64,000 bases of DNA, taken from assembly GCF_003790525.1 (NCBI RefSeq), contig NZ_CP033635.1; one strand, 5' to 3'. Source of the stretch: Escherichia coli. Lineage in GTDB: Bacteria > Pseudomonadota > Gammaproteobacteria > Enterobacterales > Enterobacteriaceae. The notes beneath the pieces were generated by a model, which was not told the DNA's origin, searched no databases, and saw only the letters and a program-made list of their open reading frames with translations. Position numbers and translations under genes: made by a program. Of this stretch, positions 5,015 through 32,797 are shown piece after piece. Positions within the stretch are counted from its first letter, which is position 1. Each line of letters begins with the position of its first letter.

Positions 5015-6493
5015 TTACGCATTCGACCAGCTCTGGATCGAATCTTCATTCCCCAGCTCACCATGCATCACTTCATACGATTTTTTCAGGATCACATCAG
5101 TGTGCTTGGTTAGGTCTTTGAAAATGCCTTTATTCATCGCGTCGTAGCGTTTGGCGTTGCTCTCAACAGGCATAAAGATATCTTTCACGCGAACCATTTT
5201 GTCGACAGCCGTTGCGTAATCCGGGTATAGCCCCAGACCTGCCGCCGTATTGATCGCAGCCCCCAGACTTGCACAACCATTAATGGCGTTTCGGCGTGCC
5301 GGAAGGTTGAACACGTCGGCAAAAATCTGCATAAACAGATCGCTGTTCGAACCGCCGCCAGTAATGATCACATGCTTTGCAAAGTGATTCATTTCATTAC
5401 ACATATTGTCGTAATTGTTCTTCAGCGTCAGCGCCACGCTTTCCAGTATCGAACGATATATCCATGCGTAATCCATGCTGGAATCAAAGCCGATCATAAT
5501 CCCGCGTTTGTATGGTTCCCACGGATTGGTCAGCCAGTCCAGCACCGTCATCAGACCATTACAGCCAGGCGGCACACAAGACGCTTTTTTGTTGAGCAAA
5601 TCTTCCGGTGAAAGATCCTGTGCTTTGGCATCCTGAATTAACGACTCGCCTAGCATGTCGCGTAGCCAGCTCACCGTCCACATGCCTTTGCGAATACCGT
5701 AACCTTCATACAGCAAGGTTTGCGGAATAGAAGACATAATCGGCCAGTACGCTACCGGATCTTTCGGCAGTGCTTTGCCGTTCATCATCAACGCGATGTA
5801 AGTGCCAAGAGAAATTACCGCCGTTTCATCATCCAGTAACCCTGCTCCCAGTGCTTCTACCGGTTTATCACTGGTGGTACAAACAACGGGCAGTCCAACC
5901 GGGAAATGTGTCGCCAGCGCGGCTTGTGGTGTGATATGCCCAAGAACAGTGCCCGGCATTTGCACATCAAAAAGCATCTGTCGGGGAATATTAAACTTCT
6001 CCATTACCGCGGTATCTTCGCTCCATGCCCAGGTCTTATAATCCACCGGCCACTGACCAAAATAGTTGGCGATATTGTCTTTAAACTCGCCGGTTAAACG
6101 GTGTGTCAGATAACCTGAAAAAGAGGTGACATATGCCACATCAGGATTGGTGTGCTCGTAGGGACGTGTAACGCGTGCATCCTGCCAGCTAATCAACGGC
6201 GCAGCTGGCGTGCCATCGGCTTTCAATAACGCACGGCAGCAACGGATGGATCCCAGACCAATACCGACAATATCTTCTTTATTTCCGGCAAACTGACTCA
6301 TCAAATCGTGACCGGCAAAACATAATGATGCCCATAAATCGTCGTCAGGATGTTCTGCGGTATCGGCATCTGGCGTGTGCATCGGCTGCAATAAGCCTTT
6401 GCCTTCGCAAACCACATTACCTTCCAGATCATACATCACCACTTTTGTGCTCTGACTTCCGCCATCAATCCCTATGATGTATTTTTTCGACAT
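5015..6493 (-). CDS. ygcE: FGGY-family sugar (pentulose/hexulose) kinase
   Basis: 492 aa ORF, N-terminal IGIDGGSQSTK actin-fold kinase motif. Confidence 0.85.
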   Translation of the reverse strand: MSKKYIIGIDGGSQSTKVVMYDLEGNVVCEGKGLLQPMHTPDADTAEHPDDDLWASLCFAGHDLMSQFAGNKEDIVGIGLGSIRCCRALLKADGTPAAPLISWQDARVTRPYEHTNPDVAYVTSFSGYLTHRLTGEFKDNIANYFGQWPVDYKTWAWSEDTAVMEKFNIPRQMLFDVQMPGTVLGHITPQAALATHFPVGLPVVCTTSDKPVEALGAGLLDDETAVISLGTYIALMMNGKALPKDPVAYWPIMSSIPQTLLYEGYGIRKGMWTVSWLRDMLGESLIQDAKAQDLSPEDLLNKKASCVPPGCNGLMTVLDWLTNPWEPYKRGIMIGFDSSMDYAWIYRSILESVALTLKNNYDNMCNEMNHFAKHVIITGGGSNSDLFMQIFADVFNLPARRNAINGCASLGAAINTAAGLGLYPDYATAVDKMVRVKDIFMPVESNAKRYDAMNKGIFKDLTKHTDVILKKSYEVMHGELGNEDSIQSWSNA

Positions 6494-6519
6494 GATTTTT
6501 CTCCTGTAATTTTCTGGAC

Positions 6520-7797
6520 TTACTTGCTGCTAGCCATAGCAGGGGCGCTATCAGCAGTACGAATTTTTTGGAACAGCAAAAAGGTAAAGATGATCACCAT
6601 GGCAAGCGCCGCCATGCCCATTAGCCACATGTTGCGGTAGGCTTCTGCAGCGGGCAGGGTGTCTTGCCAGTGGCCGATAATCGGGTAAACGAAGACATCC
6701 GGCAGGAATCCAATCACCGAACAAATACCTACCGTGGTGCCCATAATGTAAGACGGTGTTCTCGCTTCGCCGGGGCAGGCCCAGTACAGTCCACGTGAGG
6801 CGTAGCAGGTGAATCCCAGTAGTAAAATCAGGCCAATCCCCATAGCGACCGATTGCGGGTTAGAGTTGGTAACAAGCAGGGCAGTCAGTGCCAGCAGGCC
6901 GATGATGGAAAGGATTTGAATTACGCGGGTAGGGGATTTCACTTTACTGTAGGTGGTGATAATGCCGCCAAGTGGACCACACAGCGCGCGGAAGATTTTG
7001 TTGATCACAATCCCCATGTAGCTCGCCGCCACCAGCGACATGCCGTACATTTCGGTGAGATAGTTGGTGGAGTAACTCAGAATGGCGTAGATGGTGAAGA
7101 CGCCAAAAATCACCATGCTGCAATACCAGGTGGTGCTGATGCGCAAAACAGCCAGGATGTCGCTAAGCTGGAATGATTGTTTTTCTTCGTTATTGGCACT
7201 GCGCAGGTTGTTGTTATCGCTAACAAAAAACCAGCACAGAATCCCCAACAAGATGTAAACCACACTATAGATGATAATGACCGTTTTCAGGCTGGCGCTG
7301 TCATCCGGTGCAAAGCGAGAAAAGACCCACATGGTAAACACCGCCAGCGACATTACACCGACGCCGCGCAGCCCTTCCATCCAGCCCATAATTTTCCCTT
7401 GCTCGCTATGATCGCCCAGCAACGATGCGGCTTTAATCGACACCGACCACAGCATTAAAATCGTCGTTATCGCAAAGGCAACCTGAATACAGAGCATTAC
7501 CCACAGCGGTGGATAAGTTGCCATTAACAGACCCAGTAATCCGGTAATGATCATCGCGGAAGTAATCATTTTGCGATGTGAGAATTTATCGGCAATAACG
7601 CCACTGGGCGCATAAAGAATAATAGCTGCAATACCAAAGGTACTCATTATTAAACCTATCTCGGTATTGCTGAATCCCATAAATTTCGCCATGGGAATTT
7701 GATAAATATAACGTAAATAAGCCAGGTCGAAACTAACGCCGCCGCTAAAACTAATTATCGCGAGGGTTATCCAACGGCGATATGAGTTGTGTTGCAT
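6520..7797 (-). CDS. yqcE: MFS transporter
   Basis: 425 aa ORF, 12-TM-like hydrophobic profile; 27 bp upstream of ygcE on the same strand. Confidence 0.8.
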   Translation of the reverse strand: MQHNSYRRWITLAIISFSGGVSFDLAYLRYIYQIPMAKFMGFSNTEIGLIMSTFGIAAIILYAPSGVIADKFSHRKMITSAMIITGLLGLLMATYPPLWVMLCIQVAFAITTILMLWSVSIKAASLLGDHSEQGKIMGWMEGLRGVGVMSLAVFTMWVFSRFAPDDSASLKTVIIIYSVVYILLGILCWFFVSDNNNLRSANNEEKQSFQLSDILAVLRISTTWYCSMVIFGVFTIYAILSYSTNYLTEMYGMSLVAASYMGIVINKIFRALCGPLGGIITTYSKVKSPTRVIQILSIIGLLALTALLVTNSNPQSVAMGIGLILLLGFTCYASRGLYWACPGEARTPSYIMGTTVGICSVIGFLPDVFVYPIIGHWQDTLPAAEAYRNMWLMGMAALAMVIIFTFLLFQKIRTADSAPAMASSK

Positions 7798-20000: not shown

Positions 20001-20019
20001 CCATCAGCCCGGTCTTGAA

Positions 20020-20051
20020 GGCCTGATAAGACGCGTGAGCGTCGCATCAGG
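20020..20051. repeat. REP element between cysI and cysH
   Basis: GCCTGATAAGACGCGTGAGCGTCGCATCAGGC palindromic unit. Confidence 0.6.
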
Positions 20052-20073
20052 CAAGGCAAACAGTGAGGAATCT

Positions 20074-20808
20074 ATGTCCAAACTCGATCTAAACGCCCTG
20101 AACGAACTGCCGAAGGTAGATCGCATTCTGGCGCTGGCGGAAACTAACGCCGAACTGGAAAAACTGGACGCTGAAGGCCGCGTTGCCTGGGCGCTGGATA
20201 ATCTGCCCGGTGAATATGTACTTTCTTCCAGCTTTGGCATTCAGGCGGCGGTGAGCCTGCATCTGGTGAATCAGATTCACCCGGATATTCCAGTGATCCT
20301 CACCGATACCGGTTATCTGTTCCCGGAAACCTACCGCTTTATTGACGAGTTAACGGACAAACTCAAACTCAACCTGAAAGTGTACCGTGCTACCGAAAGC
20401 GCTGCCTGGCAGGAAGCGCGCTACGGCAAACTGTGGGAACAGGGCGTTGAAGGTATTGAAAAGTACAACGATATCAACAAAGTCGAACCGATGAACCGGG
20501 CGCTAAAAGAACTGAACGCGCAAACCTGGTTTGCCGGCCTGCGCCGTGAACAATCCGGCAGTCGTGCCAATTTACCGGTGCTGGCAATTCAGCGTGGCGT
20601 ATTTAAAGTGCTGCCGATTATCGACTGGGATAACCGAACTATTTATCAGTACCTGCAAAAACATGGCCTGAAATATCACCCATTATGGGATGAAGGATAT
20701 TTATCGGTCGGTGATACCCATACAACCCGTAAATGGGAACCCGGCATGGCGGAAGAAGAAACGCGTTTCTTTGGCTTAAAAAGAGAATGTGGGTTACACG
20801 AAGGGTAA
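20074..20808 (+). CDS. cysH: phosphoadenosine phosphosulfate (PAPS) reductase
   Basis: Start taken at [14 protein letters not shown] (244 aa); the ORF-track start at 19921 is an upstream extension across the REP. Confidence 0.9.
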
Positions 20809-21072
20809 ATATTGCCGGATAAATTAAACGCCTCTGTCAGAAATGATGGGGGCGTTTTTATTTTGCGAGCAGCATTCCTGATTTTAAACGTGAACGTCGT
20901 TGGAAGAATTAACAGGTATAGAATGGCGTTGGGTGCTTGAGGCTGTCTGGCGTTAAGCATTCGCGAGGTTCCAGATGGACAAAAGCCCCAGGCGATATTT
21001 CTATCAACCTGAGGCCAGCGTTCGAACCCAAACAATTCGAATGTTAGTCTCTTCTTTGCAGGGAGGCAAGAC

Positions 21073-21225
21073 ATGCTGACAAAATATGCCCTTGTGGCAA
21101 TCATAGTGCTGTGTTTTACAGTACTGGGATTCACGCTGATGGTAGGCGACTCGTTGTGTGAGTTGAGTATCAGAGAACGTGGTATGGAGTTTAAGGCGGT
21201 TCTCGCTTACGAATCGAAGAAGTAG
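21073..21225 (+). CDS. Hok/Gef-family type I toxin (50 aa)
   Basis: Below the ORF-track length cutoff; ATG at 21073 preceded by GGGAGG (21061-21066); [50 protein letters not shown] has the Hok family TM helix plus LCE...AYES signature. Confidence 0.7.
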
Positions 21226-21246
21226 CCACCACGCGGGGGTAAAACC

Positions 21247-22585
21247 CATAAGCGCTAACTTAAGGGTTGTGGTATTACGCCTGATATGATTTAACGTGCC
21301 GATGAATTACTCTCACGATAACTGGTCAGCAATTCTGGCCCATATTGGTAAGCCCGAAGAACTGGATACTTCGGCACGTAATGCCGGGGCTCTAACCCGC
21401 CGCCGCGAAATTCGTGATGCTGCAACTCTGCTACGTCTGGGGCTGGCTTACGGCCCCGGGGGGATGTCATTACGTGAAGTCACTGCATGGGCTCAGCTCC
21501 ATGACGTTGCAACATTATCTGACGTGGCTCTCCTGAAGCGGCTGCGGAATGCCGCCGACTGGTTTGGCATACTTGCCGCACAAACACTTGCTGTACGCGC
21601 CGCAGTTACGGGTTGTACAAGCGGAAAGAGATTGCGTCTTGTCGATGGAACAGCAATCAGTGCGCCCGGGGGCGGCAGCGCTGAATGGCGACTACATATG
21701 GGATATGATCCTCATACCTGTCAGTTCACTGATTTTGAGCTAACCGACAGCAGAGACGCTGAACGGCTGGACCGATTTGCGCAAACGGCAGACGAGATAC
21801 GCATTGCTGACCGGGGATTCGGTTCGCGTCCCGAATGTATCCGCTCACTTGCTTTTGGAGAAGCTGATTATATCGTCCGGGTTCACTGGCGAGGATTGCG
21901 CTGGTTAACTGCAGAAGGAATGCGCTTTGACATGATGGGTTTTCTGCGCGGGCTGGATTGCGGTAAGAACGGTGAAACCACTGTAATGATAGGCAATTCA
22001 GGTAATAAAAAAGCCGGAGCTCCCTTTCCGGCACGTCTCATTGCCGTATCACTTCCTCCCGAAAAAGCATTAATCAGTAAAACCCGACTGCTCAGCGAGA
22101 ATCGTCGAAAAGGACGAGTAGTTCAGGCGGAAACGCTGGAAGCAGCGGGCCATGTGCTATTGCTAACATCATTACCGGAAGATGAATATTCAGCAGAGCA
22201 AGTGGCTGATTGTTACCGTCTGCGATGGCAAATTGAACTGGCTTTTAAGCGGCTCAAAAGTTTGCTGCACCTGGATGCTTTGCGTGCAAAGGAACCTGAA
22301 CTCGCGAAAGCGTGGATATTTGCTAATCTACTCGCCGCATTTTTAATTGACGACATAATCCAGCCATCGCTGGATTTCCCCCCCAGAAGTGCCGGATCCG
22401 AAAAGAAGAACTAACTCGTTGTGGAGAATAACAAAAATGGTCATCTGGAGCTTACAGGTGGCCATTCGTGGGACAGTATCCCTGACAGCCTACAAAACGC
22501 AATTGAAGAACGCGAGGCATCGTCTTAACGAGGCACCGAGGCGTCGCATTCTTCAGATGGTTCAACCCTTAAGTTAGCGCTTATG
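21247..22585 (+). mobile_element. IS186 insertion sequence (about 1339 bp)
   Basis: 23-bp terminal inverted repeats CATAAGCGCTAACTTAAGGGTTG (21247-21269) and its reverse complement (22563-22585); encodes IS186-type transposase; flanked by a duplicated GGGTAAAACC-type target. Confidence 0.9.
21302..22414 (+). CDS. insL: IS186 transposase (IS4 family)
   Basis: 370 aa from ATG 21302 (MNYSHDNWSAILAHIGKPEEL...); the ORF track starts two codons earlier at a GTG. Confidence 0.9.
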   Translation: MNYSHDNWSAILAHIGKPEELDTSARNAGALTRRREIRDAATLLRLGLAYGPGGMSLREVTAWAQLHDVATLSDVALLKRLRNAADWFGILAAQTLAVRAAVTGCTSGKRLRLVDGTAISAPGGGSAEWRLHMGYDPHTCQFTDFELTDSRDAERLDRFAQTADEIRIADRGFGSRPECIRSLAFGEADYIVRVHWRGLRWLTAEGMRFDMMGFLRGLDCGKNGETTVMIGNSGNKKAGAPFPARLIAVSLPPEKALISKTRLLSENRRKGRVVQAETLEAAGHVLLLTSLPEDEYSAEQVADCYRLRWQIELAFKRLKSLLHLDALRAKEPELAKAWIFANLLAAFLIDDIIQPSLDFPPRSAGSEKKN

Positions 22586-22768
22586 GGGTAAAACCCCGCG
22601 TACTGAATTGTGATGGTTTGGTCTCCTGCACCCTTTTTTAATTTATATTGTTTATGTGAATATTATGCCTATGTTTATTATTCATATATATTACGGATGA
22701 AAATTATTTGATTATTCATAATGTAAATATTTTATTGAACGATATATATCACAGATAATTTTTAATAT

Positions 22769-25468
22769 ATGCGTAAATATCCTTTAAGTTTACTGAAGGA
22801 TAAAAATATTGTGACTTTTTTTGATTTCTGGGGAAAAACCCGACGCGGCGAGAAAGACGGGGGCGACGACTATCACCTTCTTTGCTGGCATTCGCTGGAT
22901 GTAGCCGCGATGGGCTATTTAATGGTTAAAAGCAATTGCTTCGGACTGGCTGACTATTTTCGTCAATTAGGTTTCGCTGACACGGAGCAGGCAGCACAAT
23001 TTTTCGCCTGGCTGCTGTGCTGGCACGATATTGGAAAATTTGCCCGCTCTTTTCAGCAACTTTACCTGCACCCACAACTCAAGGTCCCGGAAGGCGCAAG
23101 AAAGAATTACGAAAAGATCTCTCATTCAACGCTGGGCTACTGGTTGTGGAACCATTATTTAAGTGAATGTCAGGAGTTGCTTCCTTCATCTTCACTCTCT
23201 CCGCGCAAACTTAAACGGGTGATGGAGATGTGGATGCCCATGACTACCGGGCATCATGGTCGACCCCCTGAGCGTATGGATGAACTGGATAATTTTCTGC
23301 CTGAAGACAAAGGTGCCGCACGAGATTTTCTCCTTGCAATCAAGGTACTGTTTCCGCTCATAGAGATCCCCACATTCTGGGATGATGACGAGGGCGTTGA
23401 ACTTATAAAACAACTTTCCTGGTATATCTCTGCAACCGTCGTACTTGCAGACTGGACGGGATCGTCAACGCGATATTTTCCACGCGTCGCACAGACAATG
23501 GATATTGAAGATTACTGGCAGAAAACTTTAGTTCAGGCTCAAAACGCCTTAACCGTCTTTCCTCCAAAAGCAGAAAGCGCGCCTTTCACCGGAATTAATA
23601 CGCTGTTTCCTTTTATTGAGAATCCGACACCGCTACAGCAAAAGGTGCTGGATCTGGATATCAGCCAGCCGGGACCACAGTTATTTATTCTGGAGGATGT
23701 AACCGGCGCAGGTAAAACAGAAGCGGCGCTTATCCTGGCGCACAGGTTGATGGCTGCGGGGAAAGCGCAGGGTTTGTTTTTTGGCCTGCCAACAATGGCA
23801 ACGGCCAATGCCATGTACGATCGACTGGTCAAAACCTGGCTTGCTTTCTATTCGCCAGAGTCCCGCCCCAGCCTGGTGCTGGCACACAGTGCCCGAACAT
23901 TAATGGACCGCTTTAATGAATCACTCTGGTCCGGTGATTTAGTCGGGTCAGAAGAACCGGATGAACAAACGTTCAGTCAGGGATGTGCGGCCTGGTTTGC
24001 CGACAGTAACAAGAAGGCGCTACTGGCTGAAATTGGCGTCGGCACGCTGGATCAGGCGATGATGGCTGTGATGCCGTTCAAACATAATAATCTGCGGCTT
24101 CTGGGACTGAGTAACAAAATCCTGCTGGCTGATGAGATCCATGCCTGTGACGCTTACATGTCATGCATTCTTGAAGGGCTGATCGAGCGGCAGGCGCGTG
24201 GCGGAAACAGCGTCATTTTGCTTTCTGCCACGTTATCTCAACAGCAGCGCGACAAACTCGTTGCTGCCTTTGCGCGTGGTATAGAGGGCCAGCAAGAAGC
24301 TCCGTTCCTGGAAAAGGATGATTACCCCTGGCTGACGCACGTTACGAAATCCGATGTGCATTCACACCGGGTAGCGACGCGCAAAGACGTTGAGCGCAGC
24401 GTGAGTGTGGGTTGGCTTCATAGCGAACAAGAGTGTATTGCGCGTATCGCATCGGCGGTAAGTCAGGGGAAATGTATCGCCTGGATCCGAAATTCTGTCG
24501 ATGACGCCATCCAGGTTCATCGTCAGTTACTTGCCCGCGGCGTCATTCCTGCTTCCAGCCTTTCACTTTTTCATAGCCGCTTTGCTTTTAGCGATCGCCA
24601 GCGAATTGAAACGGAGACGCTGGCACGCTTTGGTAAAGAAGACTGTTCACAGCGTGCCGGAAAAGTCCTCATTTGTACTCAAGTCCTGGAGCAGAGCGTT
24701 GACTGCGACCTGGACGAAATGATTTCCGACCTTGCCCCTGTTGATTTACTGATCCAGCGAGCAGGGCGATTACAGCGACATATCCGCGATATGAATGGCC
24801 AGTTAAAGCGTGACGGTAAAGACGAGCGTCACCCTCCTGAATTGCTGATTCTGGCCCCCGTCTGGGACGACTCTCCGGGTGACGAATGGTTTGGCAGTGC
24901 CATGCGTAACAGTGCATTTGTCTATCCCGATCATGGGCGAATCTGGCTGACGCAGCGTGTGCTGCGTGAGCAAGGTGCTATTCAGATGCCACACTCAGCC
25001 CGGCTTCTGATTGAATCAGTCTACGGTGAGGACGTAGTAATGCCGGAAGGGTTTGCCCGCAGCGAGCAGGAGCAAGTGGGCAAATATTACTGCGATCGCG
25101 CAATGGCTAAAAAGTTTGTACTGAACTTCAGGCCCGGCTATGCCGCCAATATCAACGATTACCTCCCGGAAAAACTGTCGACACGTCTGGCTGAAGAGTC
25201 TGTTTCCCTGTGGCTGGCTACCTGTATTGACGGTGTGGTGAAGCCTTATGCCACAGGTGCACACGCATGGGAAATGAGCGTTGTCAGAGTGCGCCGAAGC
25301 TGGTGGAAAAAACATCGGGATGAGTTTTCTTTACTGGAAGGGGATGCGTTCAGGCAGTGGTGCGTTGAACAGCGGCATGATCCGGAGATGGCAAACGTGA
25401 TTTTAGTCACCGATGACGAAAGTTGTGGGTATTCGGCTACGGAGGGATTGATTGGCAAGGTTGGTTGA
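22769..25468 (+). CDS. cas3: Cas3 helicase-nuclease (type I-E)
   Basis: 899 aa; N-terminal HD region and superfamily-2 helicase motifs (GAGKTEAA, DEIH); first gene of the cas cluster. Confidence 0.9.
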   Translation: MRKYPLSLLKDKNIVTFFDFWGKTRRGEKDGGDDYHLLCWHSLDVAAMGYLMVKSNCFGLADYFRQLGFADTEQAAQFFAWLLCWHDIGKFARSFQQLYLHPQLKVPEGARKNYEKISHSTLGYWLWNHYLSECQELLPSSSLSPRKLKRVMEMWMPMTTGHHGRPPERMDELDNFLPEDKGAARDFLLAIKVLFPLIEIPTFWDDDEGVELIKQLSWYISATVVLADWTGSSTRYFPRVAQTMDIEDYWQKTLVQAQNALTVFPPKAESAPFTGINTLFPFIENPTPLQQKVLDLDISQPGPQLFILEDVTGAGKTEAALILAHRLMAAGKAQGLFFGLPTMATANAMYDRLVKTWLAFYSPESRPSLVLAHSARTLMDRFNESLWSGDLVGSEEPDEQTFSQGCAAWFADSNKKALLAEIGVGTLDQAMMAVMPFKHNNLRLLGLSNKILLADEIHACDAYMSCILEGLIERQARGGNSVILLSATLSQQQRDKLVAAFARGIEGQQEAPFLEKDDYPWLTHVTKSDVHSHRVATRKDVERSVSVGWLHSEQECIARIASAVSQGKCIAWIRNSVDDAIQVHRQLLARGVIPASSLSLFHSRFAFSDRQRIETETLARFGKEDCSQRAGKVLICTQVLEQSVDCDLDEMISDLAPVDLLIQRAGRLQRHIRDMNGQLKRDGKDERHPPELLILAPVWDDSPGDEWFGSAMRNSAFVYPDHGRIWLTQRVLREQGAIQMPHSARLLIESVYGEDVVMPEGFARSEQEQVGKYYCDRAMAKKFVLNFRPGYAANINDYLPEKLSTRLAEESVSLWLATCIDGVVKPYATGAHAWEMSVVRVRRSWWKKHRDEFSLLEGDAFRQWCVEQRHDPEMANVILVTDDESCGYSATEGLIGKVG

Positions 25469-31426: not shown

Positions 31427-32797
31427 GTGTTCCCTGCGCCAGCGGGGATAAACCGGTGACCATAAGGGCATTTCATACTGCCTTGCTGTGTTCCCTGCGC
31501 CAGCGGGGATAAACCGGTGAACGTGACAACGCCCGCGACAGAAACGTCGTGTTCCCTGCGCCAGCGGGGATAAACCGGGAAGAAGCGGTAAAGCGGGTTC
31601 CAGTTCAGCGTGTTCCCTGCGCCAGCGGGGATAAACCGAAATTAATTTCGAAACGGGCGTTGATGGTGAAGTGTTCCCTGCGCCAGCGGGGATAAACCGG
31701 CTGGCGCACCTTACGCAAAAATAGACGTAAAGTGTTCCCTGCGCCAGCGGGGATAAACCGCCAGGGAGCGAAGCTGTGGCCATGCTGAAAGGGTGTTCCC
31801 TGCGCCAGCGGGGATAAACCGGGGTTCTATTTCCTCGGGATTTGCCGACACGCGTGTTCCCTGCGCCAGCGGGGATAAACCGGTCAACGCTGGTCAGGCG
31901 TGGTACTTCCTCCGGTGTTCCCTGCGCCAGCGGGGATAAACCGGCTGCCGCGCTTTCGGTGTGGGAGCAGTATGAGTGTTCCCTGCGCCAGCGGGGATAA
32001 ACCGAAACTCCGTGGTGTAGTGCGTTTGTTGGTGCGGTGTTCCCTGCGCCAGCGGGGATAAACCGTTGGTATTAACGGGAATGTAGTCACTCCAGGAGTG
32101 TTCCCTGCGCCAGCGGGGATAAACCGGCGATCGTATTTTCCGCTACGTCGCTCAAATGGTGTTCCCTGCGCCAGCGGGGATAAACCGTCGTTGATGGTGT
32201 GATGAGTGTACAAAAAAAAGTGTTCCCTGCGCCAGCGGGGATAAACCGACGACTGAATCCGGCGAGGCTATCAACTGGCCGTGTTCCCTGCGCCAGCGGG
32301 GATAAACCGCCGCACACGTCGAGCTGGTGGGGATTAATGCTGTGTTCCCTGCGCCAGCGGGGATAAACCGCAGTAAACGTTCGCGCGTTCTCGCGCTCAC
32401 GAGTGTTCCCTGCGCCAGCGGGGATAAACCCTCTGTGTATTCGCTACCAGCCAGCACCGGTACGTGTTCCCTGCGCCAGCGGGGATAAACCGCAGGGTAA
32501 CTGGCTGCTCCTCAACCATTCCGCGTGTTCCCCGCGCCAGCGGGGATAAACCGGGGTTTTAGCGACCGGACCAGAGTACGCAACAGTGTTCCCCGCGCCA
32601 GCGGGGATAAACCGTTGCGCCTTAAGTTCCTTAACTTCCTCTGTATGTGTTCCCCGCGCCAGCGGGGATAAACCGGGAGTGATGAATTGGAAGTAACGGA
32701 TAACCGCGTGTTCCCTGCGCCAGCGGGGATAAACCGGACGCACTGGATGCGATGATGGATATCACTTAGAGTTCCCCCCGCCCCTGCGGTAGAACTC
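31427..32797 (+). CRISPR. type I-E CRISPR array: 23 repeats of 29 bp (last one degenerate), 22 spacers of 32 bp, period 61 bp
   Basis: Repeat GTGTTCCCTGCGCCAGCGGGGATAAACCG starting at 31427, 31488, 31549 ... 32708 (every 61 bp); degenerate terminal repeat GAGTTCCCCCCGCCCCTGCGGTAGAACTC at 32769-32797. Confidence 0.95.

Follow-up and report, generated by a model that had tools for sequence, protein, structure and literature searches.

How did an insertion sequence (IS) come to lie between a Hok-family toxin gene and cas3 in Escherichia coli, and what does its presence change? We addressed this question in a 64,000-nt stretch of contig NZ_CP033635.1 (RefSeq assembly GCF_003790525.1), hereafter called the window, in which cysJ, cysI, cysH, a hok/sok locus, the insertion sequence, cas3, casA-E, cas1, cas2, a CRISPR array and iap follow one another, all on the plus strand. 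The toxin gene is hokX, and the element is IS186, of the IS4 family. It is highly probable that an active-type IS186 transposed into its preferred GGGG-N6-CCCC palindrome, a GC-rich stem-loop of the 3' untranslated region of the hokX mRNA, that this palindrome is a recurrent hot spot for the element, and that the hok/sok unit was split as a result.

IS186 occupies its preferred target palindrome

The element is bounded by perfect 23-bp terminal inverted repeats (CATAAGCGCTAACTTAAGGGTTG), whose two copies are the sole matches to this sequence in the window, with none expected by chance. All of its 1339 positions match both K-12 IS186B and the IS186 copy of E. coli B. The transposase encoded by insL is identical to the K-12 InsL2 protein and scores 133 bits against the NCBIfam IS4 family transposase model transpos_IS4_1 (cut-off 115). 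A preliminary description of the window had identified the element as IS186, with its transposase gene in the same orientation as cas3 and 183 bp between the element and cas3. This was borne out by the sequence identities, by the open reading frames (ORFs) and by the 183 nt that separate the end of IS186 (22585) and the ATG of cas3 (22769). The closest complete genome, that of strain CM2 (99.8%), shares this insertion, but there the IS measures 1342 bp and the annotation gives the transposase a frameshift, whereas the window copy is intact.

At the left junction, the hok TAG is followed by CCACCA, CGCGGGGGTAAAACC and the start of the IS (CATAAGCGCTAACTTAAGGGTTG); at the right junction, the IS end (CAACCCTTAAGTTAGCGCTTATG) is followed by the flank GGGTAAAACCCCGCGTACTG. 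IS186 is thereby flanked by a 10-bp direct repeat, GGGTAAAACC (Table 1). This duplication can alternatively be read as 11-12 bp, IS186 then measuring 1337-1338 bp, because the target has the form GGGG...CCCC and the IS ends are C...G; the reconstruction of the original site is unaffected. We built the empty site in silico by removing IS186 and one of the duplicates, and we searched the resulting 702 nt in 5426 complete E. coli genomes. The genome of strain SMS-3-5 (NC_010498.1, 2960736-2961437) is 100% identical to it from end to end, and its annotation places hok on one side of the site and cas3 on the other. In a direct alignment, SMS-3-5 has GGGTAAAACC once, and both of its flanks are identical to those of the window. 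This comparison with an uninterrupted allele, which the preliminary description had proposed, confirms both the insertion and the target-site duplication.

The original site, CGCGGGG-GTAAAA-CCCCGCG (CGCGGGGGTAAAACCCCGCG), is predicted to form a 7-bp hairpin (-15.2 kcal/mol). The whole palindrome begins at 21232, 6 nt past the hok stop codon (21223-25), and its GGGGG run begins at 21235; the latter is the start, 9 bp past the stop, that had been given for the site. According to PMC6925257, which cites Chong 1985 and SaiSree 2001, the preferred target of IS186 is 5'-GGGG(N6/N7)CCCC. The window target, GGGG-GTAAAA-CCCC, fits this consensus, and the length of GGGTAAAACC is in line with a variable duplication of about 10 bp. 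The GC-rich, hairpin-like target of the GGGG-N-CCCC type that had been proposed thus exists uninterrupted in SMS-3-5. Staggered cuts placed symmetrically about the palindrome would account for the 10 duplicated base pairs, which consist of GG, the 6-nt loop and CC. Because the hok hairpin is the sole GGGG(N5-7)CCCC site in the reconstructed window of 62.6 kb, target preference alone accounts for the placement of IS186.

The hairpin varies slightly between strains. In the B2-phylogroup strain EcPF18, it has one G fewer (CGCGGGG-TAAAA-CCCCGCG, with a 5-nt loop), and the hokX locus runs directly into iap, with no cas genes.

Recurrence of the insertion at hokX

We counted the arrangements of this site in the same 5426 genomes. 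That of the window, with both flanks and the same IS orientation, is present in 174 of them. The hokX left junction with an inverted IS was found in 839 genomes, 328 of which keep the same right junction and the 10-bp duplication beside cas3, and 2238 genomes have uninterrupted hok-cas3. The distance between the two junction matches is 1579 bp in strain 602354, which corresponds to 120 + 1339 + 120. Overall, about 19% of the complete genomes (~1000/5426) have an occupied hokX site, in both orientations and on several haplotypes. A higher count of 1730 genomes for the left junction in the window orientation was set aside, as it is inflated by the hokE-IS186 junction (89% identity); the clean figure is 174.

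The window shares its left-flank haplotype with the empty SMS-3-5 allele. Strain WCHEC005784 has a same-orientation insertion on a second hokX haplotype, which departs from that of the window at 9 of 397 left-flank positions. Judging from IS orientations and flank haplotypes, at least two independent insertions are required, and three or more have probably occurred at hokX.

The same insertion point in other loci

In K-12, the hokE locus reads TGCGGGGAGTAATCC, IS186 (IS186B) and GGAGTAATCCCCGCA, with the element oriented as in the window, and the hokC locus reads GGCGGGGAGTGATCC, an inverted IS186 (IS186A) and GGAGTGATCCCCGCC. The insertion nucleotide is identical in the homologous hairpins of hokX, hokE and hokC. 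The two K-12 loci also resemble the window in the element itself, in the post-stop position of the GGGG-N6-CCCC hairpin, in the 10-bp duplication and in the location of the fold-back-inhibition (fbi) element, which is left downstream of the IS. They differ from it in loop sequence (AGTAAT or AGTGAT, against GTAAAA in the window). In addition, the paralogue of the window is hokX, located between cysH and cas3 with a CRISPR-Cas operon downstream.

The third K-12 copy, IS186C, is inserted in the intrinsic terminator hairpin of nupC, GCCGGGG-ATAATT-CCCCGG followed by a T-run, with GCCGGGGATAATTCC and GGATAATTCCCCGG as flanks and GGATAATTCC as the duplication. The hokE, hokC and nupC copies share the same geometry, the duplication being made up of GG, the 6-nt loop and CC. 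This nupC-pdeA copy occupies positions 640-2060 of the extracted K-12 locus, and all three K-12 copies of IS186 are in hairpins of the same shape. The hot spot of IS186 in the lon promoter reads GGGGGAAACATCCCC; like that of nupC, it is of the same target type as the window site. The lon insertion inactivates a promoter, with a clear phenotype; the window insertion, by contrast, affects a 3' untranslated region, and no phenotype has been demonstrated for it.

The left junction at hokX (CGCGGGGGTAAAACC, then IS186) recurs in E. coli B, one of the inverted-IS genomes outside the set of 328, but there the IS is inverted, the right flank lies within a CRISPR spacer and the cas genes are absent. 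Such an arrangement is the hallmark of recombination between two copies of IS186. Whereas the whole cas operon is deleted there, the window has a simple insertion with both duplicates, a complete cas operon and a 22-repeat array. In E. coli B-ZidR (5398-6760 of the extracted locus), the other IS flank consists of 22 nt of a truncated CRISPR spacer (GGGTTTTTCCCCACCGTTCAGG), itself a G-run/C-run site, and the region from cas3 through cas2 and the leader is absent. The right flank of E. coli B (GGGTTTTTCCCCACCG...) was also considered as a second target in the window and was ruled out, as this sequence is absent from the window; it is a spacer of the B lineage.

The insertion separates hokX from its predicted fold-back element

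The mechanism by which the translational-activator (tac) element and the fbi of hok mRNA operate has been described (PMC9841398). In the minimum free energy (MFE) fold of the reconstructed, IS-free hokX mRNA, nt 1-14 form a duplex of -21.8 kcal/mol with 22620-22633, a stretch that immediately precedes a T-run. The predicted pairs between tac and fbi are those of nt 1-6 (GGGUGC) with GCACCC and of nt 9-14 with GGUCUC. The fbi lies 24 nt downstream of the target hairpin, which folds as a separate local stem-loop in the prediction. The same end-paired fold is predicted for the reconstructed hokC mRNA. Across five hokX alleles, both elements are conserved, with a single change, T to C in the fbi of the B2 strain, that turns a G-U pair into a G-C pair. 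In strains without cas genes, homology with the locus extends no further than about 22640, a limit that marks where the hok unit ends.

The preliminary description had proposed that IS186 disrupts the 3' fold-back element of the hok mRNA. The post-stop hairpin is indeed broken, but the MFE fold indicates that this hairpin is not the fbi, which is intact; the IS appears rather to sit between the hok ORF and the fbi with the native 3' end. Their distance from the hok body has grown by 1349 bp, and tac and fbi are 1.7 kb apart in the IS allele. For IS-allele transcripts that end at 21246, 21300, 21430 or 21600, the predictions have tac paired locally with nt 19-32, and the pairing between the 5' and 3' ends is lost. 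These folds resemble the local tac rearrangement described for the processed hok mRNA of R1 (PMC9841398). We also considered a substitute fbi within IS186. Several 30-nt segments of the IS are predicted to pair with tac about as well as the native fbi in isolated duplexes (e.g. at 21639, -23.8 kcal/mol), but none is used in the IS-allele folds, and this candidate was rejected.

The toxin ORF would thus stand apart from the fbi and the native 3' end, and with the hok/sok unit split in this manner the hokX transcripts would be unable to form the closed, end-paired form. They would adopt a 'processed-like' fold instead, with a locally folded 5' end. Constitutive SokX from its intact gene would bind and destroy this form, leading to rapid antisense-mediated decay. 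The stable, inert mRNA reservoir would be lost, and the locus would be functionally silent rather than toxic. Published statements agree with this expectation. In K-12, the IS186 copy that follows gef/hokC 'is thought to disrupt the fbi', while the mRNA is still made and antisense-regulated (PMC3562002). According to PMC7232551 and PMC12214031, in which Pedersen and Gerdes 1999 is cited, insertion elements have inactivated hokA, hokC and hokE of K-12 as well as the hokX gene of E. coli B.

Alternative explanations and effect on cas3

Several points weigh against the reading of a hot-spot insertion that splits and silences the hok/sok unit. Its RNA consequences derive from MFE predictions for RNAs of 300-670 nt, the consensus scan revealed no convincing terminator in the left part of IS186 to set the end of the hok transcript, and the number of independent insertions is deduced from orientation and flank haplotypes, not from phylogeny. 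According to a preprint (bioRxiv 10.1101/2025.08.07.668861), the IS-free chromosomal hokA, hokB and hokC that Pedersen and Gerdes tested gave no post-segregational killing either; the IS may therefore change nothing phenotypically. The K-12 hokE mRNA, with IS186 at the same position and in the same orientation, is still transcribed and 40% A-to-I edited (PMC12214031), so 'silent' cannot mean 'not expressed'. A different view is that the insertion was kept, or recurred, since severing the fbi and the 3' end removes a costly or dangerous reservoir of HokX toxin, which implies selection beyond target preference. It would agree with the presence of IS186 at the identical nucleotide of three paralogous hok loci, with the location of two of the three K-12 copies at hok hairpins, with the 19% occupancy of the hokX site and with the term 'inactivated' applied to such loci (PMC7232551, PMC12214031). 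We nevertheless find such adaptive disarmament of the toxin improbable. Target preference suffices where the window offers one consensus target, the third K-12 copy is in an ordinary terminator of the same shape, 2238 genomes retain the empty site, and the IS-free loci cited in the preprint were inactive in killing assays to begin with. Given that IS186 has struck hokC, hokE and hokX at one and the same nucleotide, in both orientations and with such an occupancy at hokX, the hok 3' hairpins might more generally exceed a chance match to the IS186 consensus and be preferred or selected 'landing pads' through which IS186 recurrently disarms chromosomal hok loci; we regard this proposal as doubtful. 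Finally, IS elements are frequent sites of misassembly, and a collapsed or misplaced repeat could mimic an insertion. Such an assembly or annotation artefact has practically no chance of being the explanation: it is refuted by the clean 10-bp duplication, by the presence of both junctions in 174 independent complete genomes and by the existence of a matching empty site.

The remaining alternative to a hot-spot insertion with consequences for hokX concerns cas3. The statement in the preliminary description that IS186 separates cas3 from its native upstream region was overstated: the IS is inserted upstream, but the 173 bp adjoining cas3, including the whole 16%-GC tract (22640-22768), stay attached and are identical to those of the uninterrupted SMS-3-5 allele. 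This tract presumably holds the cas3 promoter and the H-NS target, by analogy with K-12, in which a different cas variant has a CRP site at -38 to -66 of the cas3 ORF and promoter elements within about 70 bp of it (PMC7019758). Because these proximal 173 bp are unchanged, little change in cas3 expression is the default expectation. The co-oriented IS could still raise cas3 expression by read-through from the transposase or hok promoter, the T-run at 22634-39 being without its long-range helix partner, or it could alter H-NS silencing by replacing the upstream DNA. Consistent with such rewiring, insL points in the same direction as cas3, from which the element is 183 bp away, and the sequence before the T-run folds weakly by itself in the IS allele. 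In our consensus scan of 20800-22900, no terminator was detected at either end of IS186, in particular no strong one at its right end, or at the 3' end of hok, although this does not settle read-through. Promoter-like sites were fewer in that region than in shuffled sequence. In addition to the unchanged proximal region and the K-12 analogy, the distribution of orientations argues against rewiring: among cas3-retaining genomes, the opposite orientation is the commoner one (328 vs 174), and thus no orientation appears to be favoured for expression. No outward promoter of IS186 is documented in the literature searched. Altogether, regulatory rewiring seems quite unlikely to us, and an effect of IS186 on cas3 expression is possible but unsupported.

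Relation to published arrangements and to cas loss

Recurrent insertion at this hot spot is already known from published work, namely IS186 at hok loci, at hokX in E. coli B and at the CRISPR-I boundary. Almendros et al. 2014 (mBio, PMC3903273) place IS186 at the GC-rich IG2-IG3 boundary beside hok/sok in CRISPR-I, upstream of the cas-E1 genes. They derive the IS186-bearing arrangements from an ancestral cas-E1 arrangement. They also propose that recombination between IS186 copies leads to deletion of cas-E1 and to replacement by the K-12-type module, the IS being the first step. Those CRISPR-I arrangements correspond to the locus and the IS186 position of the window. The main documented evolutionary effect of the insertion is its role as a recombination substrate: in such a scenario, a second IS186 in the CRISPR array would recombine with the hokX copy, and the whole cas-E1 operon would be deleted, as in E. 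coli B.

To this picture, our analysis adds the exact match to the empty site, the finding that three hok paralogues were hit at an identical nucleotide, the location of the fbi with respect to the IS and the counts per orientation. For annotation purposes, the hokX locus should be read as a split hok/sok unit, with its ORF and SokX intact and its fbi and 3' end displaced. Likewise, the cas operon is to be annotated as complete, with the upstream IS186 as the mark of a lineage prone to losing cas genes through the IS. In biological terms, the published picture gains numbers, and no new question is raised.

Features of the locus

Table 1. Coordinates of the hokX locus, IS186 and the adjoining CRISPR-Cas genes in the window
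Feature	Position	Strand	Remarks
hokX mRNA 5' untranslated region	20931..21088	+	Rfam RF01794 (sok/hok 5' region), full-length match, 111 bits (gathering score 59)
tac (5' end), GGGTGCTTGAGGCT	20931-20944	+	
SokX antisense RNA gene (antitoxin)	20975..21033	-	Mapped by alignment from K-12 sokX (b4701, NC_000913.3 2887353-2887411)
12-codon leader ORF	21041..21079	+	TGA overlaps hok ATG (ATGCTGA); read from sequence
hokX, Hok/Gef-family toxin ORF	21073..21225	+	50 aa, intact
Left half of split palindrome, CGCGGGGGTAAAACC	21232..21246	+	Duplication copy 1, 21237-21246
IS186 (IS4 family; named IS421 by PGAP)	21247..22585	+	1339 bp, perfect 23-bp inverted repeats
Left inverted repeat	21247-21269		IS186 terminus
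insL transposase gene	21302..22414	+	370 aa, intact, same orientation as hok and cas3
Right inverted repeat	22563-22585		IS186 terminus
Right half of split palindrome, GGGTAAAACCCCGCG	22586..22600	+	Duplication copy 2, 22586-22595
fbi, GGTCTCCTGCACCC, and T-run	22620..22633 and 22634-22639	+	Native 3' end of hokX unit, displaced
AT-rich cas3-proximal upstream region	22640..22768	+	129 bp, 16% GC, intact beside cas3
cas3	22769..25468	+	899 aa, non-K-12 'E1' type I-E variant; followed by casA-E, cas1, cas2 and array
CRISPR array	31427-32736		22 repeats, 29-bp repeat type

The SokX gene is untouched by IS186, and the window is identical to K-12 over this stretch and up to the hok ATG. Homology with K-12 stops right after this ATG (window 21075), where the K-12 sequence continues into an E2-type cas3 promoter with a CRP site (TATGAGCAGCATCGAA). 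K-12 therefore retains sokX but no hokX ORF. The leader ORF and mok have homologous start positions, and this ORF is much shorter than the long, in-frame mokC of K-12; from its sequence, it may be a short mok-like coupling ORF.

The Prokaryotic Genome Annotation Pipeline (PGAP) labels a protein identical to HokX, WP_000956460.1, as 'Hok/Gef family protein'. NCBIfam Hok models match HokX with E = 9e-16 and 1e-10, with scores under the cut-offs of the HokA equivalog and Hok-family subfamily models. The Tyr46 codon of HokX is TAC followed by G (21208-21211), which gives the UACG context found at TadA A-to-I editing sites. TadA editing recodes Tyr46 to Cys in HokC, HokD and HokE (PMC12214031), and by analogy HokX may be an editing substrate.

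In Rfam scans, run at a permissive E-value for the region and at the gathering score for the whole window, the hok/sok 5' element was the only one found. Sub-threshold naRNA4/REP and ctRNA matches were set aside as a repetitive extragenic palindromic (REP) element and the cysH terminator, respectively. The former relates to an imperfect palindrome at 20010-20053, between cysI and cysH, which gives sub-threshold naRNA4 matches on both strands and is most likely a REP element.

The Cas3 protein of the window scores above the cut-offs of the NCBIfam models cas3_core and cas3_HD. As judged from the ORFs and from the PGAP annotation of the 99.8%-identical CM2 locus, the operon has the composition of the type I-E 'E1' variant, with cas3, casABCDE, cas1 and cas2 followed by an array. 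Eighteen of the 22 repeats of this array depart from the canonical E. coli repeat by a C-to-T change at position 9 (GTGTTCCCTGCGCC...). One repeat (32403-32431) has this T and a second mismatch, and the three canonical repeats are at the iap-proximal end of the array (3', cas-distal; 32525-32675).

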